Shown in pieces: positions 32,144-63,459 of a DNA stretch of 64,000 bases (position 1 is the stretch's first letter; each line of letters begins with the position of its first letter). The DNA is from Acidimicrobiaceae bacterium. GTDB taxonomy: Bacteria > Actinomycetota > Acidimicrobiia > Acidimicrobiales > JACDCH01. The stretch covers positions 32,185 through 96,184 of the forward strand of contig JBEEFW010000021.1 of assembly GCA_041166385.1 (NCBI GenBank), in the 5' to 3' direction. The translations under genes and the position numbers were made by a program. A model generated the notes under the pieces. That model worked only from the letters and a program-made list of their open reading frames with translations, was not told the origin of the DNA and made no database searches.

Positions 32144-32923
32144 GTGATGGGGGTCATCAACGTGACCCCGGATTCGTTCTCCGACGGTGGGCTCTTCCTC
32201 GATCACGAGGCGGCCATCGTGCGCGGCCATGCGTTGATCGCCGAGGGGGCCGACGTGATCGACATCGGCGGAGAGTCGACCCGTCCCGGCGCCGAAGGCG
32301 TGCCCGTCGGCGTGGAGCTCGAGCGGGTGCTTCCCGTGGTCGAGGCGCTCGCGCCGCACGTGCGGGTGTCGATCGACACGCGCAAGGCGAAGGTGGCCGA
32401 GGCGGCGATCGCCGCGGGCGCCACGTTGCTCAACGACGTGTCCGCGTCGCTGCACGAGGTCGCGGCCGCGGCCGGACCGTCCGTCGGCTTCGTCGCCATG
32501 CACATGCTCGGGGACCCGCGCACGATGCAGGCGAACCCCACCTACGACGACGTCGTCGCGGAGGTCTGCGAGTTCCTCGTGGCGAGGGCCGAGGCGGCCG
32601 TTGCCGCGGGCGTCGAAGAGGTGTGGATCGACCCAGGGATCGGATTTGGGAAGACGGCGGCGCACAACCTCTCGCTGCTGCACCGTCTCGATGTCCTGGT
32701 TTCGACCGGATTTCCGGTGGCCATCGGTACGAGCCGCAAGCGATTTCTGGGAGCGCTCCTGGCCGAGGCCGATCGCCCAAAACCGTTGGAACCAGTGGCA
32801 CCGGAGGATCGTGTTGAGGGCTCCGTGGCCACCGCCGTGTGGGCGATGGTCCAAGGCGTTCGCATGGTTCGGGTGCATGATGTCCGGGCCACGGTCCACG
32901 CCGCACGGGTGGTAGCCGGGTGA
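32144..32923 (+). CDS. folP: dihydropteroate synthase
   Basis: MGVINVTPDSFSDGG N-terminus, ...DIGGESTRPG... Confidence 0.9.
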   Translation: MMGVINVTPDSFSDGGLFLDHEAAIVRGHALIAEGADVIDIGGESTRPGAEGVPVGVELERVLPVVEALAPHVRVSIDTRKAKVAEAAIAAGATLLNDVSASLHEVAAAAGPSVGFVAMHMLGDPRTMQANPTYDDVVAEVCEFLVARAEAAVAAGVEEVWIDPGIGFGKTAAHNLSLLHRLDVLVSTGFPVAIGTSRKRFLGALLAEADRPKPLEPVAPEDRVEGSVATAVWAMVQGVRMVRVHDVRATVHAARVVAG

Positions 32924-46461: not shown

Positions 46462-48993
<2,532 letters not shown>

Positions 48994-49005: not shown

Positions 49006-52000
49006 TCAGCGCACGATGGCGAGCCGTTCGGCCGTCGTCGGTTCCGCCAACGGGACCGTTGGCGTCCGTACGACGCCGAGCCCTTCGAAGAGGGCGGCCG
49101 CCTCATCTGCGAACTCCCCCGCGCGGTCGAGACCGAGCAGGTGGCCGACCGCGCCGAGCGCCTGCAGCGTGAGCGCGGACTCGTAGTCGGCGGCGGCCTC
49201 ACGGCTGCGCACGAGGCTGTAGCCGAGCCGCGACCAACCCGTGAGGGGGTCGCCTGCTTGCGCGTAGGCGTAGCCCAGCACGCGCTCCACGAGCATCGAC
49301 ACATACGGCGACGCGTTCATGCGCTTGGCGCGCGCGTCCACGTCGTTGGCCAGTTCGATCGCCGCCGCCGGATAGCCGGCGAGCACGAACCGTTCGGCGT
49401 CGCGGGCATCTGCTTCGAGCAGCATCCCCTCACCGCCGATCCGTCGGAGCACGGCGCGCGCTTGCGCGTACCACGCTGCCGCGTCCTCGAAGCGGCCCTC
49501 GCGCGCCGCGACGCGTCCGAGGTTGCCGAGCGCCATGCCCGTCATCGCGTGCCCCGACGCCCGCCAGATCGCCAGCGCCTCGTGGAACAGCGCGTCGGCT
49601 TCGATCGTGTGTCCCTGGTCCGAGCTGATCTCGGCGATGTTGTTGAGGATGAGCGCCTCCATCGCCAGTGCGCCCGCGGCGCGGGCCGCCTCGAGGCTGT
49701 CGCGGTACCAACTGGCCGCGTCGTCCCACCGGCCCTCGTAGTACGCGGCGATGCCCATGTTGTTGAGGGCGTTGGTGCGACCGACCTCGTCGCCGAGCTC
49801 GTCGTAGATCGCGAGCGACAGTTCGCTGTACGGCACCTCGGGCTCGAGCCGCAGCTCGATGTGGATCCAGTCGAGTAGGCGATAGGCGTGGGCGAGCACC
49901 GCCCGCACCTCGGCCGGCCGGGCGGCTTCGGCGAGTCGCACCCCTTCCTCGAGGATCGGCCGCGCCTTGAGATGGCGTCCTTGGCGGAGTTGCGCGGCGC
50001 CTTGGCTGACGGTGAGCTCGGCGCGGAGACGTAGGGACTCGTGATTCATCACCGTCGTCGCCAGGGCGGCGGTGCGGTCGAGCTCTGCGAACCCTCGCTT
50101 GTACGACCGGAGCGCATCGGAGAACCGTCCCTCGCGCTCCCACACGATGCCTGCCTTGCGGAACAGGGCGGCCACCGCGTGCGGATCGCCGGCAACGAAG
50201 CGGCGCGCCTGGCGATACGCCGCCATGGCTTCCACGTAGCGGCCGCTCAGCTCGGCGGCGTCCCCGAGCCGCTCGGCGACCGCGGCTCGGGCCGGCGACG
50301 TGATCTCGGGAAGATGGCGGGCGGCCTCGAGGGCGCGGCCGTAGAACGCGGTGGCCTCGACAGGTGCTCCCGCCTGTTGCGACCGTTCGCCCGCGAGACA
50401 CGAGTACTCCCATGCCTTCGTGTAATGGCGGGCCGCGTGGAAGTGGATCGACAGCAGCTCGGCCACCTCGTCGGGGCGGTCACCGGCATCGGCCTCGAGG
50501 ATCTCTCCGGCGCGGCCGTGCAACGTGTGGCGCGCCTTGAACGAAAGTCCCTCGTACGCGACATCGCGCAGGAGCACATGACGGAAGCGGACCATGCCTC
50601 GTGTGCCACCCGCGGCGGTGTTGTCGGGTCCGAGGAAGTGTCCCAGCCGACGCAGGCGAGGGGCGAGGGCCGCGGGCGTGACGTCGAGCATCTGCGCGAG
50701 CACGGGAACAGGGAACCGGCTCCCGAGCACCGCCGCCCGCCGCAAGAGCGATCGCTCGTCGCCTGGCAGCGTGTCGATCGTCGCGGCGATGACCGCCTCG
50801 ACGGTGTCGGGCAGCTCGGTCATCGAGCCATCGGTGGCGGCGCGCACGAGCTCCTGGAGGAACAGCGGGTTGCCACCGCTGCGGCTGGCAAGGTCGGCGA
50901 GCACCTGCGGCTGGAGGCGAGCGCCGTCGCCATCGGCGGTGAGCGACGTCGCCAAGGCGGACGCCGCGGCGTCGCCGAGCGGCTCGAGGGCGATGCGTGT
51001 CGGGTTCGCGCTCTCCGCCAACGACAGTCCGCCGAGTGTCGGGCGGCGGGTGACGATGATCGCCCACGGCCGACGGGCCACGTCGTTCAGCAGTTCGTGT
51101 AGGAGATCGCTCGACGCCGCATCGAGCCAGTGCGCGTCCTCCACGGTGATCAGCGCGGGCCCGGAGAGGACCCCGATCATCAACCGGGCGACCGCGTTCT
51201 GCACGCGAGCCGGGCGAAACGCGGGGTCGAGGCGCGCCATCTCCGGCGTGTCCGCGATCTCCAGCCCGAGCGGCACGCCCAGCAACGGCAGCCAGGGCAG
51301 GAGGTCTGGCGCGACATCCGCAACCGTGCGCCGCAGCGCGGCCTCGACCTCGTCCCTGTCACTGTCGACGCCGACACCGATCGCCTGCCGCAGTGGCCGG
51401 CGGAGCGGGTAGTACGGCGTCGCGAGGCTGTAGCGCCCAGCCTCCATCGAGAACACCGGCAGGCCATGCGGCAACGAGAGCACGGCGGCGAGCAGCTTCG
51501 ATTTGCCGATGCCCGGCTCGCCCACCAGTTCGACCACCACGCCGCTGCCCTCGTGTGCATCGGCGAGTGCCGATCGGACGATCCCGAGCTCGCGGTCGCG
51601 ACCGACGAGCGGGACGTCGCCCTCGTCCGACTCCATCCCCTCGAAGGTGTCTTGGACGTCGCCGATCACCGACGCGTGTACCGGCTGCGACTTGCCCTTC
51701 ACCGCGAACGGCTCGAGCGACGTGCGAGCGAACGACGTGCGTACGCGATCGACGAGCTCGTCGGTGGCGAGCACCTGCCCCCAGTCCGCGCGGCCCATCA
51801 CGCGGGCCGCGAGGTTCACGGCGTCGCCGATCACGGTGAAGGCGCGCCGCTCGCGGCTGCCGAGATCAACGGCAAAGACGCGGCCACGGCTGGCTCCGGC
51901 GCGCAGCGGCAAGCGGCCTCCAGCGTCCACGATCCGCCGCAGTGTGTGCACGAGGCAATCCGCGTCGTCGGGTGAGGCCGCCGGCACGCCCGCCGCGATG

Positions 52001-53013
52001 ATCAGCTTGAGCGCGCCCTTGTCGACATCGGTCGCGAGAAATGTTGTGCCGTGCTCGACACACGCGTCCTGCGCGTGGGAGATCACGTCGTGCAGCGCCT
52101 CGGCCAGCGCGGCCGGACCCGCGCCGGCGAGCAACGTGTCGGTCCCGCCGATCTGCACGAAGCCGATGGCCGCCAAGCGGTGCTCGCCGTCGTCCTCGCT
52201 CGTGCGGAGATGCGTCGCCAACGCGCCAGGCAGGCCGGGCGCGTGATCGTCGACCTCAGGCGCACGCGGCACCTCGACGTCCCCGATGGGTGGCGGGCGT
52301 CGCAACAGACGCCCTTCGCCGACGTCCGCTCCGAACGTGGCCCCGTCGAGCAGCGTCGCAGTGGAACGACCGACAACGACCTGACCGCTCGCCGCGGCGG
52401 CTTCCATCGCGAGAGTCGTGGTGGCCACCGGGCCTGTCACCAACAACTCGAGATGAGATGCCCCCGTGAGGAACAGGTGGCACTCGCCGGAGCACACGCC
52501 GACGGACATCCCGAGCCGGGCGATCCCCGCTTCGGTCTCGAGCCGGCGGTATGGCCTCAGCGCGGCGAGCATCTCCGTGGCGGCGGCACTCGCTCGGACG
52601 GCATGGCCATCGCCGCTGAACAACAGGAGGACGGCGTCGCCGCCGAACTTCAGGCAGTCGCCGCCGCGAGCCCCAGCGATGGCGAGGAGATCACCGAAGA
52701 CCGCGTTGAGGATCTCGGTGAGGTGCTCGGCACCGACCTTGCCAAGTCGCGCGAGCCGCTCGGTCAGCGGCGTGAAGCCGGAGACGTCGGCGAACACGAA
52801 CGTGCCGTCGATGGCGCGCCATGCCGGTGCCGCCCCGTGGCCGAGCCACTCCGCGTGCTGTACGGAGAGGTACGCACCGAGCTGTCGTCCGTCCGCTGTT
52901 GCTGCTCGCGTCATCGCCACTACGTCTTCCGCCCGGCTGGATCCGCCTCCTGTCCAACTGTTGCAGATTCGCCTGACCGAATCGCCCCTTTGTGCCGAGA
53001 TGAGGCTGCCCAT
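49006..53013 (-). CDS. tandem class III cyclase-homology domains + STAND P-loop NTPase + TPR protein
   Basis: CHD1 spans ~aa 68-225 (FVFADVSGFT, KFGGDAV). CHD2 spans ~aa 278-445 (IGDAVNLAARV). Walker A is GEPGIGKS and Walker B ITVEDAHWLD, followed by ~600 aa of TPR-like repeats. No C-terminal HTH seen. Alternative start ATG 52914. Confidence 0.85.
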   Translation of the reverse strand: MGSLISAQRGDSVRRICNSWTGGGSSRAEDVVAMTRAATADGRQLGAYLSVQHAEWLGHGAAPAWRAIDGTFVFADVSGFTPLTERLARLGKVGAEHLTEILNAVFGDLLAIAGARGGDCLKFGGDAVLLLFSGDGHAVRASAAATEMLAALRPYRRLETEAGIARLGMSVGVCSGECHLFLTGASHLELLVTGPVATTTLAMEAAAASGQVVVGRSTATLLDGATFGADVGEGRLLRRPPPIGDVEVPRAPEVDDHAPGLPGALATHLRTSEDDGEHRLAAIGFVQIGGTDTLLAGAGPAALAEALHDVISHAQDACVEHGTTFLATDVDKGALKLIIAAGVPAASPDDADCLVHTLRRIVDAGGRLPLRAGASRGRVFAVDLGSRERRAFTVIGDAVNLAARVMGRADWGQVLATDELVDRVRTSFARTSLEPFAVKGKSQPVHASVIGDVQDTFEGMESDEGDVPLVGRDRELGIVRSALADAHEGSGVVVELVGEPGIGKSKLLAAVLSLPHGLPVFSMEAGRYSLATPYYPLRRPLRQAIGVGVDSDRDEVEAALRRTVADVAPDLLPWLPLLGVPLGLEIADTPEMARLDPAFRPARVQNAVARLMIGVLSGPALITVEDAHWLDAASSDLLHELLNDVARRPWAIIVTRRPTLGGLSLAESANPTRIALEPLGDAAASALATSLTADGDGARLQPQVLADLASRSGGNPLFLQELVRAATDGSMTELPDTVEAVIAATIDTLPGDERSLLRRAAVLGSRFPVPVLAQMLDVTPAALAPRLRRLGHFLGPDNTAAGGTRGMVRFRHVLLRDVAYEGLSFKARHTLHGRAGEILEADAGDRPDEVAELLSIHFHAARHYTKAWEYSCLAGERSQQAGAPVEATAFYGRALEAARHLPEITSPARAAVAERLGDAAELSGRYVEAMAAYRQARRFVAGDPHAVAALFRKAGIVWEREGRFSDALRSYKRGFAELDRTAALATTVMNHESLRLRAELTVSQGAAQLRQGRHLKARPILEEGVRLAEAARPAEVRAVLAHAYRLLDWIHIELRLEPEVPYSELSLAIYDELGDEVGRTNALNNMGIAAYYEGRWDDAASWYRDSLEAARAAGALAMEALILNNIAEISSDQGHTIEADALFHEALAIWRASGHAMTGMALGNLGRVAAREGRFEDAAAWYAQARAVLRRIGGEGMLLEADARDAERFVLAGYPAAAIELANDVDARAKRMNASPYVSMLVERVLGYAYAQAGDPLTGWSRLGYSLVRSREAAADYESALTLQALGAVGHLLGLDRAGEFADEAAALFEGLGVVRTPTVPLAEPTTAERLAIVR

Positions 53014-53054
53014 CCCGCCGAAGCGTCAGGGAAGTCGCACGCTCCGGCGGGACT

Positions 53055-53099
53055 GTGACGCAGTCACGCCTGGGGTTAGGCCTTTGTGACTAGTTAGGC
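53055..53099. promoter_or_regulatory. operator-like motif cluster in the divergent intergenic region
   Basis: Palindrome GTGAC-GCA-GTCAC at 53055-53067. Direct repeat TTAGGC at 53076-53081 and 53094-53099. A third GTGAC at 53086-53090. Confidence 0.25.
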
Positions 53100-53164: not shown

Positions 53165-56100
53165 ATGACGAAGAACTGGGTTCGGCGCGGCGTGGCGATG
53201 GCCATCTCGGTGGCCGTGATGGCGGGACTCCTTGCGGTGACGGAATCGACGGCGTCGGCCGCGACGCCACCGGCTGGCTCTGCCGGCGCGCTCGACAGCG
53301 GTTTCGGTACGGGCGGCGTCACGTCGACGTCTGACCCGACGCTGACCCTCACGGCGGCCAGCAAGGTGCTCGTGCAGCCTGACGGCAAGATCGTCGTCGC
53401 CGGCATTCAACCCGGGAGCGCTGGCAACGTCGTCGTCACCCGGTTCACCGCGACCGGAGCGAAGGACACCACGTTCGGCGCGCCCCTCGGGTACACGAAG
53501 CCAGGGCTGGGCAGCGCCTCTTCGCAAGACGGCGTGCAGATCGCGCTGCAGCCCGACGGCAAGATCCTCGTCGCCGGCTCGAAGGTGGTCAGCTCGCAAG
53601 CGAGGATCGCACTCGCCCGCCTGAACTCCAACGGCTCGCTCGACACCACCTTCGCCAGCGGCGGCACTGCGACGCTCGCCTTCGGTTCTTCCATGCCGCA
53701 ACAGCACGGCTCGGGTGTGTTGGTGCTGCCGAGCGGCCAGATCCTGATGAGCATCTGGATCGGACCGGGGCACGACGCGTTCAAAGTCGTCCGGTACTCG
53801 TCCACCGGCGTGTTCGACACCAGCTTCGGCAGCAGCGGCCTCGCGATCTCGCGCCCGATCACCGGTCAACCGGCGCAGGCCGCTGACCTCGCGTTGACAT
53901 CCGACAACAAGATCGTCGTCGTCGGGTCGGTCAACACCACCCACAACAGCATCGCCCAGACCGACACCGCCGTCGTGCGCTTCACCGCGTCCGGACAGCC
54001 GGACACGACGTTTCCCGCGCCGTCCGGCAACTCGCAAGGTGCGGCCATCCTCGACCGGAACAGCTCGAAGAACGATGCCGCCAACGCGGTGCTGATCGAC
54101 GCGTCCGGTCGCATCAACCTCTCTGGCACCATCGCGTCGACGCCGTCAGCGGCCTACGTGATGCGACTCACGTCGACTGGTGTGGCCGACTCGACGTTCG
54201 GTACCGGCGGCGTGCTGCAAGGCACCTTCGGCGGCGCGGCCGCGACGGGCGGCGGCGCGGCCTTCGACGCCAACGGGCGGCTGCTCGTCGCCGGCGGCGA
54301 CGGGGCATCGACCACGAACGCGCTCGGCATCGAGCGTCTGTTGTCGAGCGGCGCGACGCCGTACGACGGCACCTTCGGTCTGACGAGCACGCCGGGACGC
54401 GAGAGCGTCGTGTGCTCACCGGCGAACTCCGGCGCGGGGTACTCGGTCGCGGTGCAGCCCGATCAGCGCATCGTGCTCGCCGGTGTGTGCAACGGAGCCA
54501 TCACCGTCGCGCGCCTGAATGTCGGCAACCTCAGCAACCTCACGATGACGACCTCGACGCCCAACGCGCCGGCGGGTCACGGCACGATCCCGCTGTCGAG
54601 CGTTCCGGGCGGCGCGCTGCTGTCGACCACGAACAGCCTCATGAGCTCACCTGGATTCGGAACGCCCGGCTTTGGCACCCCGGGATTCGGTTCACCCGGA
54701 TTCGGTAGTCCCGGCTTCGGCACCCCCGGTTTCGGCACCCCCGGTTTCGGCACGCCGGGATTCGGCACGCCGGGATTCGGCACGCCGGTCGACCAGTCGC
54801 CGTTGACCGATCCGTTCCTCGGCCCGATTCCGCTGTCGGCGATCGCGATCTCTCCGTCGGCGCTCGATCCAACGGCGCCGTCGACGTGGGACCAGGTGCT
54901 CGCGGGCACGGTGTATGCCGGACTGCCCACGCAGAGCATCACGATCCAACAGCTGTTCGCGCTCAACCCGGTTCCTGCCGCGTTGCACAAGGTGACCATC
55001 GGTCAGCTCGACGTCAGCGCGACGGGTCTGCGGAAGGCCAGCGTCGGCGCGTACCTGCTGGGGCGCACACCCACGTCGGCGCTCCCGGCTCCGGCCGGCG
55101 GCTTCTGCAACTACCTGACGGGCCAACCTGCCAACTGCTCGAACACCAACGTTGCAACCGCGAGCTTGTTGGGTCTCGAGTTGCAGGGTGATTCGTTCCA
55201 GTCGTACTTCTCGTCGACGCCGATCAATCTCGTCGGTCTCGCGCTGACGGGCTCGCCGCTCAGCACGACGCTGCTCAACAACATCGACGTCGCGCAGACC
55301 ACGCTCGGCGCGGTCCGAGCCACTGCGCTCACGACACCGTCGACGTTCCTGAAGTGCACGCCGTCGTCCACCGCCGGCCCGTGCTACACGCTCGCCGACG
55401 CGCTGGCGTCCGGCAACATCCAGACGACAGCGGGTGCAACCCTCGGCGCGTTGCTCGCGAATTCGCCGAGCGCCGTCGGACAGCTCTACCTCTCGAACCT
55501 GCTGCTCGGTCTCATGTCGCGCCAGAGCCTTCCGATCGAGAACCTGGCCGCCACGACCGACATCGTGGCGAACTCGCCCCTGCCCACCAGCGGCGCGGCG
55601 TACACGATCGGTTTCGACATGGGCTGCGGCGCGGCCAGCTCGCTCGTGGTCACGCCCGCACTCCCGGCAGGGTTCCGGCTCATCCCGAGCACGGTGAACA
55701 TGACCGTCGGCAGCAGCTCGGTGAACACGACGGTCGGCGCCGACGGCACGATCAGGCCCTCTGGGTCCTTCTCGTGCTCGCAGACGCAGCACGTGACCGT
55801 GAATCTGCAGGCAGAGCCATCATCGGTTCTCGGGGGTCCCGTCACCGCGGGCACGACGGTCGCGGTGTCGACCGACTCGTTGTCGCTCAGCAACCAGGCA
55901 CCCGTGACGACCGTCGACAACTTCGAGCCCGACGACGTGACCGCCGGCAACCCAGGGAACAGCAAGCCCTTCGGCTCGCTGTACCTCGGTCACATCTCCG
56001 GTCCTGGCGACATCGACTATTTCGTGCTCCAGCCGCCGCCGTCAGGTTCGACGGTGACGGTGACGCTGAGCAACCTCCCGATCGACGCCGACCTCATGAT

Positions 56101-59100
56101 GTACGGCGCGGCCTCGCCGCTGCTTCGAGCCTCACCCGGTTTCGGCACGCCCGGCTTCGGGACTCCTGGGTTCGGGTCGCCTGGCTTCGGGACTCCTGGG
56201 TTCGGGTCGCCTGGCTTCGGGTCGCCCGGCTTCGGTTCACCTGGTTTCGGGACGCCTGGCTTCGGCTCGCCCGGCTTCGGGAGCGACGCGGCCGACAAGG
56301 CCACCCCGCCGCAACTCACTGATGACGTGCCACGGCTCAACCTTCCCGTCCGTGGCTTCTCGGCGCAGCGCAATCTCGTCGGAGAGTCGATCACCACGAA
56401 GGTCACCGACGCCGACACCTCGCCGCTGCTGATCCAAGTGTCCGGGTACAACGGCGCCTCCAGCCCGCAGCCGTACACGCTGCGGATCTCGGCGACGCCC
56501 GCGCCCGGTGCGATCCCGTGTCAGGCGCGATCGTTCCCGACCCGCGGTACTGCCGGCACGCTGCCGTCGACGCCGCTGCCGGGCAACACGCAGACGCTGA
56601 TCCTCACCAACCAGAAGCGCCTCGGTGACGTGTACGGAAACGTCGCATTGCCTGGTGGCTTCAACGGCGACGCGGGCGTGGGCATGACTGCCCGCCTCCA
56701 GTCGCTCGCCGGCCAGTCGTACGTCAACGGCGTCGTGGTGCCTGTCGAAGGCGACGCGGCCGTGGCGAACGCGTATGCCGCGTGGGACGCGTCACCATGC
56801 AACGTCGCGCTTGCGAACGACGTGGTCGCGAAGGTCAATGCCCTCGTCGACCGGCTGCGCTCGGGTCTCAACGACCTGCGCTACATCGTGATCGCCGGCT
56901 CGGACGAGATCATCCCGATGGGCCGCGTGCCGGACAAGACCGCGTTCTACAACGAGGCCGGGTTCTCGGCCGGCATCTTCGGTGGGGCCGACAACGCGCA
57001 GTCGAGCGCGGCCAAGAAGGGCTTCATCCTCTCCGACAACCCGTTCGGTGACTTCGCGCCGACCGCCATGCTCGATACGCAACTGTTCGTGCCGCAGATC
57101 GCGGTCGGTCGACTCGTCGAGACGCCCGCCGAGATGGCCGCGAGCGTCGACGGCTGCGTCACCGCCGGCTGCCGAACGACTCCGAGTGCCTCGTTCGTGA
57201 CCGGATACGCACCGATGGACAAGGGTGCGCAGGAGATCAACTCGATCCTGGCGCAGCGGGGCGTGGCCACAAGCTCACAGATCAACAACACGTGGACCCG
57301 CAACGACGCGAAGAACGGTCTCGCCAGTGCCGCGAACGGCTACGGCGCGATCAACGCGCACTACGACTACTCGCGGGCGCTTCCCGCGCAGGAGTTCACG
57401 AACGGCACCGAGTCGGATCCGCTGTCGACGGCCGATCTTCCGAGCTCGCTCGCGGGGGGCGTGCAATGGACGATCGGATGTCACTCCGGTCTCAACATCC
57501 CCGACATCTACATCGCGTCACCGACCCAAGCCGAGCAGGCGAAGACGCTCGACTGGTCACAGGCGATGCTGCACAACGGTGCTGCCGGCTTCGTCGGACA
57601 GACCGGCTACGGCCTCGGAGACACCGATGCTCTCGCGTACTCCGAGCGTCTGTCGGTCGCGTTCGCGAAGAACCTCGACGGCACGATGACGATCGGACAG
57701 GCGCTTGCCTTCGCGAAGCAACAGTTCCTCGCCACGGGCGCGCCGAGCGTCTACGACGTGAAATCGGTTCAAGAGGCCACGTTCTACGGCTTGCCGATGT
57801 GGAGGATCGGACCGAGTGGTACGAGCGCACAGGCGACGTTGCCTCCGCCTCCGCCGTCACCGCCGTCGACCGTGACGCTCGCGAGCACGTCGAAGCAGTT
57901 CGACTCGGCCGTGACGCCGTTCAGCAACCCGCCCCGCACGTCGAACAACGGACGCGGGCAGTACTACACGGTTGGCAACGAAGCGCCGCAGGTGACGCCG
58001 AACCAGCCGATCGAGCCGCGCACCGAGATCCAGCTGGATCCGCGCAGTGACGGTCTCGTTGCGCACGGAGCAGTCATCGAGACGCTCAGCTCGCAGGACA
58101 CCCCCGGGTTCAACCCCATCTACGCGACTGCGATCGCGGACGTCGGTACGTTCAATCCGGAGCCCAAGGTCAGCACCGCGTACTTCCCGTCGGCGTTGCA
58201 GTCGGTCTCGGGCATCGTCACGCCGAACGGCCGTCGCGACTCCGTCGTGCTCGTGCCGGGCCAGTTCTTCAGCGACGGCAGCGGTACCGGCACCGGAACG
58301 CAACGGCTGTACACGAAGGTCGGCCTCACCGTCCTGTCGTCGAACTCCCTCGACTCCACCGCGCCGCGCATCGCGACGGTGAACGGCGGCATCCAGGGCA
58401 TCACCGCGTCCTTCACGGTCACCACGCCGGCCACCGACGTCCAGCGAGCCGTCTTCCTGGTGCTCGTGAATCCCTCACAGGGCTGGAAGCACGTCGAAGC
58501 GGTCAACGCGGGCGGAGGCAAGTGGGTCGGCACGATGACGGTGCCGTCGGGCACGCCGTCGATCGGTCAGTACTTCGTGCAGCTCGCTGACACGAGCGGC
58601 AACGTCGGCATCGACTCGAACAAGGGCCAGGACTGGTCGGCTGGCGGCATCCCTGGCTTCTCCTTCAGCGCCAACCCCGGAGCGGACCCCAACACCGGCC
58701 TCTACCCGGACGGCACCACGGTCAGCATCACCCCGCCCACCGGTGTCTCATTCACGTACAGCCTCGACGGAGGACCCAACCAGTCCTACACGGGCCCGAT
58801 CACGATCACCGGCGACAAGGGTCACACCCTGACCGCCACTGCATCGAACGGCGTGACTGCATCGCTCGGCATCCCGATCGACGCGCATGATCCGACGGCG
58901 ACGATCACCTCACCGGCCAACGGTGGCAACTACAACCGCGGTCAGGTGGTGACGCCTGCGTACTCGTGCTCGAGCGCGGTCACGATCCGATCGTGCACCG
59001 GTCCGACGACGGTCGACACGTCGTCGCCGGGGTCGAAGACCTACACCGTGACTGCCACCGACGTGTTCGGGCGCACCGGTACCGGGTCGTCGACGTACAA

Positions 59101-59692
59101 CGTCGTCAATCGGGTGCCCGCCATCGTGTTCACGACGAAGCCGTCGAACCCGACGCACCCGGCCGATCCGGCCTACGGGAAGTTCGTGTACGCCTTGTCG
59201 GATCCTGACGACCCGGTGTCGTCGCTGTCGGTCACGTGCAAGCTCGATGGTGCGAGCGTGCCGTGCGGCAACGACCTGGCCACGGTCACGCCGGCGCCAC
59301 GGTCGGCGAGTCACACGTTCGTGGCGACGGTGACGGATCCGTTCGGCGGCACCGGTTCGGCGTCGTACACCTGGAACGTGTACTTCGACACGGTGCTCAC
59401 CGCGAACGGGGTGGTGGCCAGCATCCCGCGCTTCGATGCGGACCTGAAGACGACCGGCGGTGCGTCGGTGGGCGCGGGCAAGACCGTCCACTTCTTCGCC
59501 GGTCAGAACCAGAACCCGAGCGACGGCACGGGCGCACTGTGCTCCGCCGTGACCGATGCAAGTGGCCACGCGACGTGTGGCGACGCGGCGACCACGCTGG
59601 CTGCGCTGGGCGCAGGAGGCATCACGGTCGTGTTCTTCGGCACGGTCGACTACTGGAAGGCCGCCCCGAAGAACGCGGCGGTCGTCGGCTAG
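53165..59692 (+). CDS. giant secreted multidomain protein (propeller repeats, PGFG[ST] arrays, PPC-like, gingipain/C25-like, Ig-like modules)
   Basis: Uninterrupted 2,175-codon ORF. Signal-like N-terminus MTKNWVRRGVAMAISVAVMAGLLAVTESTASA. Domain reading is given in the findings. Confidence 0.85.
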   Translation: MTKNWVRRGVAMAISVAVMAGLLAVTESTASAATPPAGSAGALDSGFGTGGVTSTSDPTLTLTAASKVLVQPDGKIVVAGIQPGSAGNVVVTRFTATGAKDTTFGAPLGYTKPGLGSASSQDGVQIALQPDGKILVAGSKVVSSQARIALARLNSNGSLDTTFASGGTATLAFGSSMPQQHGSGVLVLPSGQILMSIWIGPGHDAFKVVRYSSTGVFDTSFGSSGLAISRPITGQPAQAADLALTSDNKIVVVGSVNTTHNSIAQTDTAVVRFTASGQPDTTFPAPSGNSQGAAILDRNSSKNDAANAVLIDASGRINLSGTIASTPSAAYVMRLTSTGVADSTFGTGGVLQGTFGGAAATGGGAAFDANGRLLVAGGDGASTTNALGIERLLSSGATPYDGTFGLTSTPGRESVVCSPANSGAGYSVAVQPDQRIVLAGVCNGAITVARLNVGNLSNLTMTTSTPNAPAGHGTIPLSSVPGGALLSTTNSLMSSPGFGTPGFGTPGFGSPGFGSPGFGTPGFGTPGFGTPGFGTPGFGTPVDQSPLTDPFLGPIPLSAIAISPSALDPTAPSTWDQVLAGTVYAGLPTQSITIQQLFALNPVPAALHKVTIGQLDVSATGLRKASVGAYLLGRTPTSALPAPAGGFCNYLTGQPANCSNTNVATASLLGLELQGDSFQSYFSSTPINLVGLALTGSPLSTTLLNNIDVAQTTLGAVRATALTTPSTFLKCTPSSTAGPCYTLADALASGNIQTTAGATLGALLANSPSAVGQLYLSNLLLGLMSRQSLPIENLAATTDIVANSPLPTSGAAYTIGFDMGCGAASSLVVTPALPAGFRLIPSTVNMTVGSSSVNTTVGADGTIRPSGSFSCSQTQHVTVNLQAEPSSVLGGPVTAGTTVAVSTDSLSLSNQAPVTTVDNFEPDDVTAGNPGNSKPFGSLYLGHISGPGDIDYFVLQPPPSGSTVTVTLSNLPIDADLMMYGAASPLLRASPGFGTPGFGTPGFGSPGFGTPGFGSPGFGSPGFGSPGFGTPGFGSPGFGSDAADKATPPQLTDDVPRLNLPVRGFSAQRNLVGESITTKVTDADTSPLLIQVSGYNGASSPQPYTLRISATPAPGAIPCQARSFPTRGTAGTLPSTPLPGNTQTLILTNQKRLGDVYGNVALPGGFNGDAGVGMTARLQSLAGQSYVNGVVVPVEGDAAVANAYAAWDASPCNVALANDVVAKVNALVDRLRSGLNDLRYIVIAGSDEIIPMGRVPDKTAFYNEAGFSAGIFGGADNAQSSAAKKGFILSDNPFGDFAPTAMLDTQLFVPQIAVGRLVETPAEMAASVDGCVTAGCRTTPSASFVTGYAPMDKGAQEINSILAQRGVATSSQINNTWTRNDAKNGLASAANGYGAINAHYDYSRALPAQEFTNGTESDPLSTADLPSSLAGGVQWTIGCHSGLNIPDIYIASPTQAEQAKTLDWSQAMLHNGAAGFVGQTGYGLGDTDALAYSERLSVAFAKNLDGTMTIGQALAFAKQQFLATGAPSVYDVKSVQEATFYGLPMWRIGPSGTSAQATLPPPPPSPPSTVTLASTSKQFDSAVTPFSNPPRTSNNGRGQYYTVGNEAPQVTPNQPIEPRTEIQLDPRSDGLVAHGAVIETLSSQDTPGFNPIYATAIADVGTFNPEPKVSTAYFPSALQSVSGIVTPNGRRDSVVLVPGQFFSDGSGTGTGTQRLYTKVGLTVLSSNSLDSTAPRIATVNGGIQGITASFTVTTPATDVQRAVFLVLVNPSQGWKHVEAVNAGGGKWVGTMTVPSGTPSIGQYFVQLADTSGNVGIDSNKGQDWSAGGIPGFSFSANPGADPNTGLYPDGTTVSITPPTGVSFTYSLDGGPNQSYTGPITITGDKGHTLTATASNGVTASLGIPIDAHDPTATITSPANGGNYNRGQVVTPAYSCSSAVTIRSCTGPTTVDTSSPGSKTYTVTATDVFGRTGTGSSTYNVVNRVPAIVFTTKPSNPTHPADPAYGKFVYALSDPDDPVSSLSVTCKLDGASVPCGNDLATVTPAPRSASHTFVATVTDPFGGTGSASYTWNVYFDTVLTANGVVASIPRFDADLKTTGGASVGAGKTVHFFAGQNQNPSDGTGALCSAVTDASGHATCGDAATTLAALGAGGITVVFFGTVDYWKAAPKNAAVVG
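54650..54784 (+). repeat. in-frame 15-bp tandem array 1 (9 units, PGFG[ST])
   Basis: Covers aa 496-540 of the giant ORF. Units 8 and 9 are nucleotide-identical. The others differ mostly at synonymous sites. Confidence 0.95.
56135..56284 (+). repeat. in-frame 15-bp tandem array 2 (10 units, PGFG[ST])
   Basis: Covers aa 991-1040. Contains an exact 30-bp tandem duplication (56153-56182 = 56183-56212). Confidence 0.95.
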
Positions 59693-59696
59693 CGCG

Positions 59697-59724
59697 ATCC
59701 GGGGCGGGTTCACCCGCCCCGGAT
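59697..59724 (+). terminator. GC-rich perfect hairpin after the giant gene
   Basis: Sequence is ATCCGGGGCGGG-TTCA-CCCGCCCCGGAT (12-bp stem), starting 5 nt after the TAG at 59690-59692. No clear T-tract follows. Confidence 0.55.
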
Positions 59725-59746
59725 GTGCGCAGTAGGGTCCGGCGTC

Positions 59747-60121
59747 GTGTACCGGAAGATCCTCGTCGGCACCGATGGATCGACGACCGCGGCCAAGGCC
59801 GTCGATCGTGCCGTCGACGTCGCCAAGGCCGCGGGTGCGACCCTCACGATCTTCACGGCCGCGCCACCGAGCAAGGGCGACAAGATCGTTGCCGCCGAAT
59901 CGCAGCGCCACGCCAACTCCGGGGTCGCCATCGACACCCGTGTTTCCGACGCCGAGCCGGTCGGTGCGCTCATCGACACTGCTCGCTCGGGTGGGTACGA
60001 CCTCGTGGTGATCGGCAACCGCGGCATGACCGGCGTGACCCGCTTCCTGCGGCTCGGGTCGGTGCCGAACAAGGTGAGCCACCATCTGCCGTGCAGCCTG
60101 CTCATCGTCAAGACAACCTGA
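59747..60121 (+). CDS. universal stress protein (UspA family)
   Basis: GTG 59747 (VYRKILVGTDGS...). C-terminal ...VVIGNRGMTGVTRFLRLGSVPNKVSHHLPCSLLIV. Confidence 0.8.
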   Translation: MYRKILVGTDGSTTAAKAVDRAVDVAKAAGATLTIFTAAPPSKGDKIVAAESQRHANSGVAIDTRVSDAEPVGALIDTARSGGYDLVVIGNRGMTGVTRFLRLGSVPNKVSHHLPCSLLIVKTT

Positions 60122-60947: not shown

Positions 60948-62303
60948 ATGGCGAAACAGCGGATCGAGTACCGGTGTGACGAGTGCGGGGCGTCTGCGCC
61001 GCAGTGGGCGGGGAAGTGTGCGGCCTGCGGAGCGTGGAACTCCCTCCAAGAGGGGCGGGCGCTGACCGCGTCGCCCGCGCTGGTGGGGGTAGCGCTGCTC
61101 CAGCCGGCGGTGCCGGTGGTCGAGGTCGACATGACCGAGTGGGAAGCGCGCTCGACCGGTATCGGCGAACTCGACCGCGTGCTGGCGGGCGGGCTGGTGC
61201 CCGGGTCGGTCACGCTGGTCGGAGGCGAGCCGGGCGTCGGCAAGTCGACACTGCTCACGCAGGCCGCCGCGGCGATGGCGCACGCCGGTGGACGCGTGCT
61301 CTACGTGACCGCGGAAGAGTCGAGTCAGCAAGTGCGGCTGCGCGCCGAACGCCTCGGCGCGCTCGCGCCGCGCCTGCTGCTGGCCGCCGAGACGAACCTT
61401 TCCAACATCGTGAGCCATCTCGACGCCGTGCGACCAGACGTCGTGATCGTCGACTCGATCCAGACGGTGCACGATCCCGACATCGGTTCCGCGCCGGGTT
61501 CGGTCGTGCAGGTGCGCGAGTGCGCGCACCGTCTCGTCCGCGAAGCCAAGGAGCGCGGCGTCGCGATCGTCCTCGTGGGCCACGTGACCAAAGACGGCGC
61601 ACTCGCCGGCCCTCGCGTGCTCGAGCACGTGGTCGACACCGTGCTGGCGTTCGAGGGTGAGCACCACCACGCATTGCGTCTCGTGCGGGCGGTGAAGCAC
61701 CGCTTCGGATCCACCAATGAGGTCGGCCTCTTCGAGATGAGCGACAGCGGCTTGATCCCGGTGCCCGACGCGAGCGCGCTGTTCCTGGCCGACCGCCGGC
61801 CGGGCGTGCCTGGCTCGGCCGTGGTGCCCGCGCTCGACGGCCACCGCCCGCTCCTCGTCGAGGTGCAAGCGCTCACCATCGACAACAACGCACCGATGGC
61901 GCGGCGCTCGGCGCAAGGTCTCGATGCGGGCCGGCTCGCCTTCCTGCTCGCGGTGCTCGAACGACACGCGGAGCTCGCCATCGTCAAGCACGACGTGTTC
62001 GCGCTGGCAGTCGGCGGTGCTCGCGTCGTCGAGCCCGGCGCCGACCTCGCCATCGCGCTCGCGGTTGCGTCGTCGCACGCGAACCTGCCCCTTGCCGACG
62101 ACGTGGTCGCCTGCGCCGAGCTCGGTCTCGGAGGCGAACTGCGTCAGGTGAGCCAGACGCCGCGCCGCCTGGCCGAGGCCGCGCGGCTCGGATTTCGGCG
62201 CGTGTTCTTGCCACACTCCGCGCCGGAGCCGCCACCGGGGCTGACCGCAGTGCGCGCGGCGACCATCGGCGAAGCGATCACGCTGGCGGGCCTCCGCTCG
62301 TAG
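60948..62303 (+). CDS. radA: DNA repair protein RadA/Sms
   Basis: Zinc finger CDECGASAPQWAGKCAACGAWNS, Walker A GEPGVGKST, KHRFG motif and a Lon-like C-terminus. Confidence 0.95.
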   Translation: MAKQRIEYRCDECGASAPQWAGKCAACGAWNSLQEGRALTASPALVGVALLQPAVPVVEVDMTEWEARSTGIGELDRVLAGGLVPGSVTLVGGEPGVGKSTLLTQAAAAMAHAGGRVLYVTAEESSQQVRLRAERLGALAPRLLLAAETNLSNIVSHLDAVRPDVVIVDSIQTVHDPDIGSAPGSVVQVRECAHRLVREAKERGVAIVLVGHVTKDGALAGPRVLEHVVDTVLAFEGEHHHALRLVRAVKHRFGSTNEVGLFEMSDSGLIPVPDASALFLADRRPGVPGSAVVPALDGHRPLLVEVQALTIDNNAPMARRSAQGLDAGRLAFLLAVLERHAELAIVKHDVFALAVGGARVVEPGADLAIALAVASSHANLPLADDVVACAELGLGGELRQVSQTPRRLAEAARLGFRRVFLPHSAPEPPPGLTAVRAATIGEAITLAGLRS

Positions 62304-62313
62304 ACTGCCGCGG

Positions 62314-63459
62314 ATGACGAAGCCTGGAGGGCCGAAACGGGCGCGTACGCCCGACGTCCTTTCGGCGGTCGGTGGCTACTCCCACAACGTGGGTCCGCGA
62401 CGGAGCATCGCGCTCCTCGATGCGCTGGCCGCCGTCGCTCCCGGGCGTCCACTCCGGGAAGGCCTCGATCGCATTCTGCAAGCGGGGATGGGCGCGCTGA
62501 TCGTCGTGGGTGACGAACCTCGGGTCCTGAACATCTGCTCCGGCGGCTTCCTGTTGGACGCGGCATTCAGTCCGCAGAGACTCTCGGAGCTGGCGAAGAT
62601 GGACGGTGCCATCATTCTCGCCGGCGACGCCAGCCGCATTGCGCGCGCCAACGTGCATCTCGTGCCCGATCCGAATGTGCCGACGTCGGAGACCGGCACG
62701 CGGCACCGCACTGCCGAGCGAGTGGCGCGTTCGATCGATGTGCCCGTGATCTCCGTCTCGGAAGACATGCAGGTGATCGCTGTCTACGTCGATGACGAGA
62801 AGTATCCGCTCGAGCCCATCCCTCGGCTCTTGAACAAGGCCAATCAGGCACTGTCGACGTTGGAGCGGTACAAGAGCCGGCTCGACGGCGTGTCGGGCGC
62901 GCTGTCCGCTCTCGAGGTGGAGGATCTCGTCACGCTGCGCGATGTCGTGACGGTGCTGCAGCGGACCGAGATGGTGCGGCGCATCGCCGAGGAGATCGAG
63001 AGCCACATCGTCGAGCTCGGCGTCGATGGTCGCCTCGTTCGTCTCCAGCTCGAAGAGCTGATGGGCGGGGTCGAGGACGACCGACGGCTCGTGATCCTCG
63101 ACTACTTCCACGAGGAGTCCGACTGGCACGTCGGCGACGCGCTCGAGGCGCTCGCCGATCTCGACACCGACGACCTGCTCGACCTCAAGATCGTGTCCTC
63201 CATGCTGCACCTGTCGGGCTCGATCGACCTCGACGTCAGCCTGCAGCCGCGTGGGTACCGTCTGCTGGCCAAGATCCCGCGGCTCCCCGATGGCGTGATC
63301 GACAAGATCGTCGAGCGCTTCGGCAACTTGCAGAAGATCATGCGCGCGACCATCGACGACCTCGACGACGTCGAAGGCGTCGGTGAAGCGAGGGCCCGCG
63401 CCATCAAGGAAGGACTGTCTCGCCTCGCCGAGTCGAGCATTCTCGATCGCTACAACTGA
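62314..63459 (+). CDS. disA: DNA integrity scanning protein DisA (diadenylate cyclase)
   Basis: DAC-domain motifs ...GALIVVGD..., DGAIIL, TGTRHRTAERV. C-terminal HhH region. Confidence 0.95.
   Translation: MTKPGGPKRARTPDVLSAVGGYSHNVGPRRSIALLDALAAVAPGRPLREGLDRILQAGMGALIVVGDEPRVLNICSGGFLLDAAFSPQRLSELAKMDGAIILAGDASRIARANVHLVPDPNVPTSETGTRHRTAERVARSIDVPVISVSEDMQVIAVYVDDEKYPLEPIPRLLNKANQALSTLERYKSRLDGVSGALSALEVEDLVTLRDVVTVLQRTEMVRRIAEEIESHIVELGVDGRLVRLQLEELMGGVEDDRRLVILDYFHEESDWHVGDALEALADLDTDDLLDLKIVSSMLHLSGSIDLDVSLQPRGYRLLAKIPRLPDGVIDKIVERFGNLQKIMRATIDDLDDVEGVGEARARAIKEGLSRLAESSILDRYN

Follow-up and report, generated by a model that had tools for sequence, protein, structure and literature searches.

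The window analyzed here is a stretch of 64,000 nucleotides (nt) from an Acidimicrobiaceae bacterium (positions 32,185 to 96,184 of the forward strand of contig JBEEFW010000021.1, assembly GCA_041166385.1). Two divergent genes in it are the subject of this report: one for a very large modular protein, here called P0001, and one for a partner protein that joins class III cyclase domains, a STAND NTPase and tetratricopeptide repeats (TPRs). We consider it likely that P0001 is an exported gingipain-type protease with the appearance of catalytic competence, that it is functionally tied to the STAND/TPR protein, which would produce cyclic AMP (cAMP), and that the pentapeptide repeats of P0001 are functional elements at the level of the peptide. 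The features on which this view depends are as follows.

49006 to 53013, minus strand: gene of the partner, a cytoplasmic protein of 1,335 amino acids (aa) with two class III cyclase domains, an AAA_16/STAND NTPase and TPRs (Pfam).
53165 to 59692, plus strand: gene of P0001, a modular protein of 2,175 aa, predicted to be exported (open reading frame (ORF) listing, translation, independent contigs, orthologues of like architecture).
53165 to 53260, plus strand: signal-peptide-like N-terminus, aa 1–32, with A-S-A at aa 30–32 (sequence reading, hydrophobicity).
54650 to 54784, plus strand: array 1, nine PGFG[ST] units, aa 496–540 (sequence repeats; spanned by contigs).
56135 to 56284, plus strand: array 2, ten PGFG[ST] units, aa 991–1040, in a loop of the PPC domain (sequence repeats; spanned by a contig of soil run X2).
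56579 to 57817, plus strand: gingipain-type (C25, clan CD) catalytic domain, aa ~1139–1551 (AlphaFold2 (AF2) model, structural match, conservation).
57359 to 57361 and 57479 to 57481, plus strand: codons of His1399 and Cys1439, respectively, invariant in 91 sequences.

The ORF of P0001, the longest of its region (66–69% G+C), runs from ATG to TAG through 2,175 codons. In the soil run that is probably the source, unitigs cover the entire gene with 0 differences, and contigs of the independent soil run X2 (~97% identical) span both array 1 (54431–54815) and array 2 (56048–56672) with substitutions and no indels. Array 1 was spanned by contigs of three runs, and the strain differences listed within it are confined to third codon positions or Thr/Ser exchanges. 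Furthermore, a 90%-identical orthologue from another metagenome agrees with P0001 in the order of its domains and in the 9 and 10 copies of its arrays. The ORF is intact and is not an assembly chimera, a concern that had been raised in a preliminary description of this DNA, made from the sequence alone.

The AF2 model of the catalytic domain has a predicted local distance difference test (pLDDT) value of 92.4. It aligned with the gingipain RgpB at Z 29.9 (4ief_B, root-mean-square deviation (rmsd) 2.6 over 306 aa) and Z 28.7 (1cvr), and with Kgp at Z 25.1, while the next family, separase, reached Z 16. Foldseek likewise returned a gingipain match at E 8e-11. Across 91 diverse sequences, His1399 and Cys1439 are invariant; they come after strands 269–272 and 309–311 of the model, in the order His then Cys, and presumably correspond residue by residue to the catalytic dyad of RgpB. 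When the Pfam model for this peptidase (PF01364, Peptidase_C25) was applied, P0001 scored 22.4 bits on the segment and 17.2 bits as a whole protein, so that its best score lies 0.6 bits under the cut-off of 23, and 73 of 91 relatives gave a match (E ≤ 0.01, best 5.2e-14). Because sequence searches of the PDB with P0001 or with a C25 family profile found nothing, the tie to gingipains rests on structure comparison. The gingipain/C25-like region proposed in the preliminary description is borne out by these results, and the protease is predicted to be active.

P0001 is also likely to be exported, judging from its sequence. Its N-terminus contains K3, R7 and R8, followed by a 17-residue hydrophobic core and then A-S-A, as had been read before, and constitutes the sole strongly hydrophobic 19-mer of the protein; a signal-peptide-like pattern of this kind was found in 80 of 118 family members. 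The Sec and Tat routes are not separable by this sequence reading. Most cysteines of P0001 occur in close pairs, as expected of an extracytoplasmic protein. Neither an LPXTG motif nor a second segment as hydrophobic as the N-terminus was found in P0001, in agreement with the earlier statement that LPXTG and a C-terminal transmembrane segment are lacking.

The two PGFG[ST] arrays, with nine and ten units, had been recognized previously. Both are modeled with pLDDT values <50, whereas the flanking regions exceed 90. At positions 1–4 of the 19 units, pairwise comparison of codons gave 374 synonymous and 0 non-synonymous differences, and position 5 toggles between Ser and Thr and accepts nothing else. 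Similar ratios were obtained for the arrays of other members (1122 vs 0 in L045 and 585 vs 0 in L074). The units of P0001 use three Pro and four Gly codons, and their DNA identity is 74–80%, as much within arrays as between arrays. Since the units are only this similar in DNA, their sameness does not stem from recent homogenization of DNA; because codons vary freely between units and residues do not, the peptide itself is under selection. In the genome of P0001, the PGFG tandem pattern is confined to this gene, and another pattern, PFGQS, is confined to a paralogue.

This tendency extends to the whole family. Tandem arrays occur at equivalent places in nearly every member, and the unit is lineage-specific, with about 60 unit types in about 200 proteins (for example, PGFGT, PGFNT, GSFGG, PFGHG, PFGQS, PFRAS, PLRGS, PLRAT, PLKNT, PLSSI, QLSSI, PLGAI and PLGGI). 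The common formula is P, a hydrophobic residue (45 of 48 types), two variable residues and then I, S, T, V or G. Among 102 proteins with two or more separate arrays, 97 carry one unit in all of them, and some of the remaining five differ by no more than a single residue, as in the S/T alternation of P0001. When one protein was taken per unit type, 37 of 38 were concordant, compared with a maximum of 6 in 10,000 shuffles. Array 1 contains near nine copies across lineages with different units (range 6–11); array 2 contains 3–4 copies in the PLR and PFG clades and 5–10 in the PGF clade. Selection fixes each unit as a peptide and keeps all arrays of one protein alike, with a wholesale swap of the unit between lineages.

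Immediately before array 2, P0001 (aa 985–990) and the equivalent positions of P0003 and P0005–P0014 harbor the motif L-R-[AGS]-[AST], and the clade with this motif has units without Arg (PGFGT, PGFNT, GSFGG, PFGHG and PFGQS). The motif looks like the leftover first unit of an ancestral PLRxS type. It could also be a candidate for a conserved Arg cleavage site.

Array 1 is directly followed by a region that shares its periodicity.

54785 to 55594, plus strand: period-5 solenoid, aa 541–810 (AF2 and hydrophobic autocorrelation).

This region is modeled mostly with pLDDT >90 as very short strands and turns. Its hydrophobic autocorrelation at lag 5 is 0.29, a value that 0 of 5000 shuffles reached; lags 10, 15 and 20 are raised as well, and the median at lag 5 across 66 relatives is 0.285. 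No period-5 signal of this kind was seen in the propeller, sandwich, C25 and immunoglobulin (Ig)-like parts of P0001. Because hydrophobic residues recur every five positions, aa 541–810 is regarded as a degenerate solenoid of pentapeptide period. A search of the ESM Atlas for look-alikes of the solenoid gave no usable match, and the result lists of PDB structure searches with a 656-residue model were taken up by two sandwich domains and not by the solenoid. In the preliminary description, this region and the sandwich that follows it had been left together as ~380 aa of Leu/Ser/Thr-rich sequence of unknown type, an entry that is now replaced by the solenoid and a pilin/CnaB-like sandwich (aa 811–917).

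The solenoid raises the possibility that the arrays are structural, either as perfect extensions of the solenoid or as spacers of set length, possibly O-glycosylated or elastic, which display a strictly regular surface or keep a fixed distance and remain uncut; the protease would then act on external substrates held by the head of the protein, and the partner would set expression through cAMP and a CRP-type regulator. The period-5 hydrophobic pattern in aa 541–810 and in the 66 relatives agrees with such a role, as does the match between the unit formula and the inward/outward register of pentapeptide-repeat helices. In addition, array 1 abuts the solenoid, the arrays of distant members lie inside the solenoid region, a few members match Pfam Pentapeptide models, and the copy number of array 1 peaks at 9 across lineages with different units. 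However, the neighboring degenerate solenoid shows that the fold needs no identical units, and a fold alone explains neither why the variable positions 3 and 4, which presumably face outward, are free of non-synonymous change nor why arrays ~450 residues apart are the same. AF2 also has the arrays disordered beside a solenoid with pLDDT >90, and PGFG[ST], with its hydrophobic residue in third place, departs from the usual register. We regard a purely structural role, the main rival of the reading favored below, as less likely than not.

The partner gene stands divergent to that of P0001, as had been noted, and its product has neither a transmembrane segment nor a signal peptide. The first cyclase domain keeps the metal-binding Asp pair and Lys (D76, D126 and K122), the second keeps N400 and R404, and the P-loop (498–505) and Walker B motif are intact. 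In class III cyclases, a pattern with metal Asp/Lys in one domain and Asn/Arg in the other indicates one pseudo-heterodimeric active site.

We surveyed the pairing in 64 family loci of >12 kb. A full-length partner orthologue (31–50% identity) adjoins the protease gene in 54 of them, upstream or downstream and on either strand, in all four arrangements. For example, three first loci with unrelated surroundings displayed the partner in divergent orientation, 8 nt downstream on the same strand, and again in divergent orientation. All-against-all clustering of the flanking ORFs of the 64 loci did not find a third conserved gene such as a transporter or modifying enzyme, and the next real cluster after the partner consisted of 6 closely related loci. 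In a phylum sample of about 200 genomes, the protease was present in 5, each with at least one copy close to the partner on the same contig. The genome of P0001 contains a second pair on contig C68: a partial paralogue (P0013, unit PFGQS, 50% identical in the C25 part) is directly followed on the same strand by a second cyclase-STAND-TPR gene whose product is 54% identical to the partner. Both genes are cut by contig ends (L002, C68:2462-6427; L087, C68:1-3606). The other ten STAND-TPR matches in this genome lack the cyclase part. Moreover, the identities of protease and partner co-vary (43 pairs, r 0.66; Mantel test, 0/2000). The cyclase neighbor is a conserved partner and not a local coincidence.

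These results also bear on a further explanation, by which P0001 would be an adhesin or a nutritional protease of the ordinary secreted kind, with repeats that serve as low-complexity linkers and a neighbor of unrelated function. PPC, Ig-like and propeller modules are indeed common in secreted hydrolases, and the family comes mostly from soil metagenomes. Nevertheless, adjacency in 54 of 64 loci through changing contexts and orientations, with a partner of its own for each paralogue, is at odds with an unrelated neighbor, and linkers do not normally have hundreds of synonymous and zero non-synonymous differences. We consider this explanation extremely unlikely and disfavor it.

The partner also occurs alone. 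At 14 loci in as many genomes (L096–L109), the partner is full-length and 38–42% identical and no relative of the giant protein lies within 8 kb; these genomes gave no C25 match at E ≤ 1e-30. The phylum-sample count of 34 out of 201 genomes includes G120, an unpublished genome with a weak match, on which no other claim depends. In the partner tree, the protease-free rows form essentially one nested clade (two changes, compared with 12.7 in shuffles), and for this reason the pairing looks ancestral and lost in one lineage. Seven of the 14 loci share other syntenic neighbors.

The remaining modules of P0001 are given below.

53282 to 54574, plus strand: delta-60/DUF5122 beta-propeller, aa ~40–470, a variable module of the family (TIGR02608, PF17164).
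55595 to 55915, plus strand: pilin/CnaB/DUF11-like beta-sandwich, aa 811–917 (VIA-align; Pfam in relatives).
55919 to 56497, plus strand: PPC/collagen-binding-domain sandwich, aa 919–1111, broken by array 2 (structural alignment).
57818 to 58144, plus strand: conserved extended segment, aa 1552–1660 (conserved motifs in alignment A1).
58145 to 59134, plus strand: conserved Ig-like modules, aa 1661–1990 (family alignment; Big_13 in relatives).
59135 to 59689, plus strand: variable C-terminal tail, aa 1991–2175, with paired cysteines and no anchor motif (<25% of relatives align).

The delta-60 repeats, which the preliminary description had associated with a beta-propeller, matched TIGR02608 in 6 stretches with 187.7 bits (cut-off 76.5) and DUF5122 (PF17164) with 106.8 bits (cut-off 27, E 6e-31). 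The sandwich at aa 811–917 aligned with SpaD (4hsq) at Z 10.6 (rmsd 2.6 over 107 aa, VIA-align), and 2 of 66 relatives matched DUF11. For the PPC sandwich, correctly described before as split by array 2, the best alignment was with the collagen-binding domain of ColH (3jqw, Z 11.6, rmsd 2.4 over 109 aa), followed by 5iku (Z 10.7) and the PPC domain of Bacillus anthracis (5sv5, Z 10.1); each alignment covered ~105 residues of model positions 440–632 and ran across array 2. The corresponding Pfam model (PF04151) was matched by 9 of 66 relatives and not by P0001. The segment at aa 1552–1660 is almost without regular secondary structure at pLDDT ~70–90 and, in the model, may wrap round the catalytic domain. 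As for the Ig-like modules that had been proposed, they can be supported only at the level of the family: >88% of relatives align as far as aa ~1950, and Big_13 was matched by 11 of 72 relatives (best E 8e-7).

Two further elements lie outside the coding sequences.

53054 to 53068, no strand assigned: palindrome TGTGACGCAGTCACG with a 5-nt spacer, in the 151-nt divergent intergenic region.
59699 to 59722, plus strand: perfect, G+C-rich 11-bp hairpin without a T tract, 7 nt past the stop codon of P0001 (sequence reading).

The palindrome TGTGACGCAGTCACG is one base shorter than the CRP-like sequence TGTGA-N6-TCACG, with CRP/GlxR-like spacing, that lies ~105 nt upstream in the two closest orthologous loci (L003:9892 and L094:5900), and soil runs X2, X3 and X4 show an extra T behind 53063. 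The short spacer may be a genuine one-base difference between strains at this putative regulator site; otherwise, it is an error that the source assembly shares. Upstream of family members we counted 10 CRP-like sites, compared with 5.0 ± 2.2 in dinucleotide shuffles (p ~0.017); the enrichment, at first 4-fold, was reduced to 2-fold against these shuffles. Both the site in the two closest loci and this modest enrichment accord with the structural explanation above, in which the partner sets expression through a CRP-type regulator; its absence from L095, L004, L005 and L009 does not. Transcriptional feedback through cAMP and CRP is weakly indicated. The hairpin after the gene is present as previously reported; lacking a T run, it is missed by a consensus terminator scan; a consensus promoter and terminator scan of the G+C-rich P0001 region found nothing.

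The two-gene module is surrounded by housekeeping genes (window 46462–48993, 59723–60121, 60948–62303 and 62314–63459, all on the plus strand), with clpC on one side and a Usp gene followed by radA and disA on the other. The same clpC ... radA, disA setting was observed in L003 and L094, whereas remote family members are found in unrelated contexts, and accordingly the protease and its partner appear to move as a unit. In L094, the locus of P0004, clpC, the partner gene, the giant gene and radA are each broken into pieces. P0004 (1,633 aa) is probably a truncated call, since frameshift errors of long reads are likely to have split these genes.

The conserved core of the family corresponds to aa ~550–1950 of P0001 (1,400 residues), and the N-terminal modules vary: ~20% of relatives align to the propeller and <25% to the C-terminal tail. 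According to precomputed Pfam annotation, other heads include Vgb/SMP-30-type, PD40/TolB-type and NHL propellers, lectins and DUF642, as well as right-handed beta-helices, calcium-binding modules and pentapeptide modules. A profile of the C25 segment retrieved 2,163 cluster representatives (E ≤ 1e-30, typically 1,800–2,700 residues) among 1.84 billion proteins, and species-representative genomes contain at least 535 family loci. The carriers are nearly all metagenome-assembled genomes (MAGs) of Acidimicrobiia, Thermoleophilia, Actinomycetes and Chloroflexota classes, and the members derive mostly from soil metagenomes. Among cultured organisms, Tenggerimyces flavus and Nocardioides marmorisolisilvae encode members of the family. 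Two members were binned outside Actinomycetota and Chloroflexota, in a Pirellulales MAG (L013) and a Rhodobacteraceae MAG (L072, with partner), by either horizontal transfer or mis-binning.

To our knowledge, C25 proteases are known almost only from Bacteroidota (gingipains and PorU). Database names for members of the present family are 'delta-60 repeat protein', 'PxKF domain-containing', 'Vgb family' and, once, 'C25 family cysteine peptidase'. The searches returned for P0001 no homologue with a known function, and the family is large and without any characterized member, consistent with the earlier remark that this domain combination could not be assigned to a characterized family; domain searches nevertheless support the propeller, PPC and C25 parts. 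Literature searches for C25 with delta-60, gingipain with STAND, cyclase or TPR, actinobacterial gingipain-like proteins and TIGR03903 did not reveal a description of the family, and a survey of STAND conflict systems (eLife 2020) contains no mention of gingipain or C25. Although the protease has a known fold, the architecture, the period-5 solenoid with perfect arrays of a lineage-private unit that is uniform in each protein, and the near-obligate cyclase-STAND-TPR partner were found in no literature. The pentapeptide periodicity of the solenoid, the variability of units between proteins together with their sameness within each protein, and the conserved status of the partner had escaped the preliminary description.

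We further analyzed three possible readers of the unit (the C25 pocket, the TPR region and a motif shared with the partner), none of which stood out clearly. For the pocket of the C25 domain, raw associations between acidic columns and Arg/Lys in the unit dissolved in phylogenetically independent pairs, where the best acidic column gave ~4.8 same vs 1.1 opposite out of 11 pairs, and gave no clear sign of a reader. Prediction of a complex between the TPR region of the partner (aa 840–1335) and array 1 (aa 488–547) scored 0.01, which is no evidence either way. A motif shared by partner and giant protein, as in amyloid-like signaling, was rejected: the 33 partners inspected contained 0 exact cognate units, and their 25 matches at four of five positions compare with 21.2 ± 5.7 in shuffled pairings. 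Finally, pairs with the same unit exceeded pairs with different units by a residual identity of +0.04 in the solenoid and the C25 domain, a weak difference that is not independent.

The absence of a shared motif is relevant to another explanation, in which the partner would act as an NLR-like STAND sensor whose effector is a cyclase and the giant protein would be a polymorphic surface or extracellular component in conflict with, or recognition of, kin, competitors or phages, the private unit and the swappable head being results of diversifying selection. A constant core combined with a rapidly swapped N-terminal module and about 60 private units would be expected under this explanation, and the cyclase domains resemble Pycsar cyclases, with low scores. 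The carrier taxa, Actinomycetota and Chloroflexota, are also those in which STAND-based conflict systems have been reported to be enriched (PMC7159879). However, PADLOC gave the partner only generic matches to PycC-cyclase and TPR models (E 1e-6 to 4e-11) and the giant protein none, and export takes the giant protein away from the cytoplasm, where the sensor resides. No amyloid-type NLR motif is common to the two proteins, with four-of-five matches equal to shuffles, and the locus has a housekeeping setting (clpC ... radA, disA) and is not a defense island. A role in conflict is highly unlikely in our estimation.

The reading that we favor, with a probability of roughly 40%, is that P0001 is a self-processing exported C25 protease that forms a conserved two-gene module with its cyclase-STAND-TPR partner. 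The mature protein would consist of a variable, target-binding head (the delta-60 propeller), the exposed array 1, the solenoid, the pilin-like sandwich, the PPC domain with array 2, the protease and the Ig-like modules. After export, the protease would cut its own protein, in cis or between molecules, inside the arrays that are predicted to be disordered. Such cutting would free the head and the N-terminal half, which resembles a pro-region, and would release up to 19 copies of a lineage-private peptide. The activity state of the module would be coupled to the partner, whose TPR/STAND part would switch the paired cyclase domains, with cAMP as the output.

The individual steps of this scheme differ in strength. 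Cleavage inside the arrays, to which we give somewhat less than an even chance, is favored for three reasons: clan CD enzymes are sequence-specific endopeptidases that are commonly matured by cuts in exposed linkers, array 2 lies just upstream of the catalytic domain in a pre-peptidase-type domain, and identical units at two distant sites fit one common reader. That the input sensed by the partner is the released peptide or some other protease product seems unlikely.

Several observations weigh against self-processing and the sensing of its products. Clan CD proteases usually have a strict P1 preference, whereas the units range over PLRGS, PGFGT and PLSSI while the C25 domain stays ~40% identical, and among 123 C25 columns tested no acidic column tracks Arg/Lys in the unit. 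The units share the period and hydrophobic register of the adjoining solenoid, and the copy number of array 1 stays near 9, both of which fit a structural role. On the side of the partner, a difference in unit between loci is not accompanied by greater divergence of the TPR region (identity to the partner in the window, 0.43 for PGFGT loci and 0.41–0.43 for PLRGS loci), about 25 more genomes in the phylum sample have orthologues without the protease, and no peptide importer is conserved at the 64 loci.

A bolder version of the scheme would be a new peptide-to-cAMP device, in which the protease excises its own multi-copy 'pheromone', perhaps upon binding of a target by the head, and the TPR-STAND-cyclase protein reads the re-imported peptide. 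The analogy is with tandemly duplicated pheromone propeptides, which extracellular proteases cleave and TPR receptors recognize (PMC11343458). The idea of the peptide as input to the partner fits the two-gene logic, the one partner per paralogue, the private units and the partial likeness of the partner to a TOMM kinase/cyclase. If it were true, paralogue pairs such as those with PGFG[ST] and PFGQS would be separate channels without cross-talk. We nevertheless consider such a device improbable.

These findings have several implications. They reveal a deep and structurally clear C25 branch with >2,000 representatives in soil Actinomycetota and Chloroflexota, in which a fixed core is combined with swappable heads. 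Repeats that are scrambled in codons yet perfect in residues, in ~60 versions, are the pattern expected of multi-copy peptide precursors or multivalent recognition elements, and because the peptides can be synthesized, the arrays offer a direct experimental handle. The pairing provides a testable link from an extracellular protease to cAMP signaling, in phyla in which the inputs of the many large cyclase/STAND proteins are largely unknown. Should the arrays instead be structural, the family would still be of use as a library, made by nature, of regular pentapeptide arrays and as a marker with which to annotate hundreds of 'hypothetical' proteins of 2,000 residues.

Among known systems, the gingipains RgpB and Kgp of Porphyromonas gingivalis (MEROPS C25, clan CD) are similar to P0001 in the two-subdomain fold and in the conserved His...Cys order. 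They, too, are secreted and made up of several domains, with Ig-like ones following the catalytic domain and, possibly in common with P0001, an N-terminal pro-region. In contrast, sequence identity is ~10–14%, and the hosts of the P0001 family are Actinomycetota and Chloroflexota, with proteins that lack the C-terminal domain for type IX secretion. The propeller head, the solenoid, the PPC domain, the pentapeptide arrays and the cyclase partner have no counterpart in gingipains.

RRNPPA systems (Rap-Phr) resemble the module in combining a cytoplasmic TPR protein with an exported protein that carries repeated, lineage-specific peptides of ~5 residues (PMC11343458), and extracellular proteolysis is the proposed maturation step in both. 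An RRNPPA system is defined by a small propeptide gene and a TPR receptor with a helix-turn-helix (HTH) or phosphatase output, whereas the exported protein here has 2,175 aa, the precursor carries its own protease, and the TPR protein is a STAND NTPase with a cyclase and without an HTH. The phyla differ and there is no sequence relationship; the likeness is an analogy of logic and not membership.

The partner shares with the TOMM kinase/cyclase fusion family (TIGR03903), named for its link to peptide natural-product loci, the order of cyclase, P-loop NTPase and TPR. It scored 167.5 bits over aa 366–895, below the cut-off of 705.75, and unlike that family it has no kinase and no HTH, contains two tandem cyclase domains and is associated with a C25 protease gene. 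A multi-domain cyclase-NTPase-TPR layout like that of the partner is also found in mycobacterial Rv0386-type cyclases.

Pentapeptide-repeat proteins (Rfr, MfpA and Qnr, with a right-handed quadrilateral beta-helix; PF00805 clan) are comparable with the solenoid in their period of five, with a hydrophobic center preceded, at a distance of two positions, by a small or beta-branched residue, and the 20-residue super-period in aa 541–810 adds to the likeness. P0001 has no Pfam Pentapeptide match, and 4 of 66 relatives match weakly. Unlike those proteins, the units of the P0001 family have Pro where Asp or Asn is usual, and the perfect arrays are modeled as disordered. The PPC fold, finally, is shared with PPC-bearing secreted proteases and with the collagen-binding domains of ColG and ColH (Z 10–11.6); in contrast to ColG and ColH, the PPC domain of P0001 precedes the peptidase, and one of its loops holds a repeat array of 50 residues.

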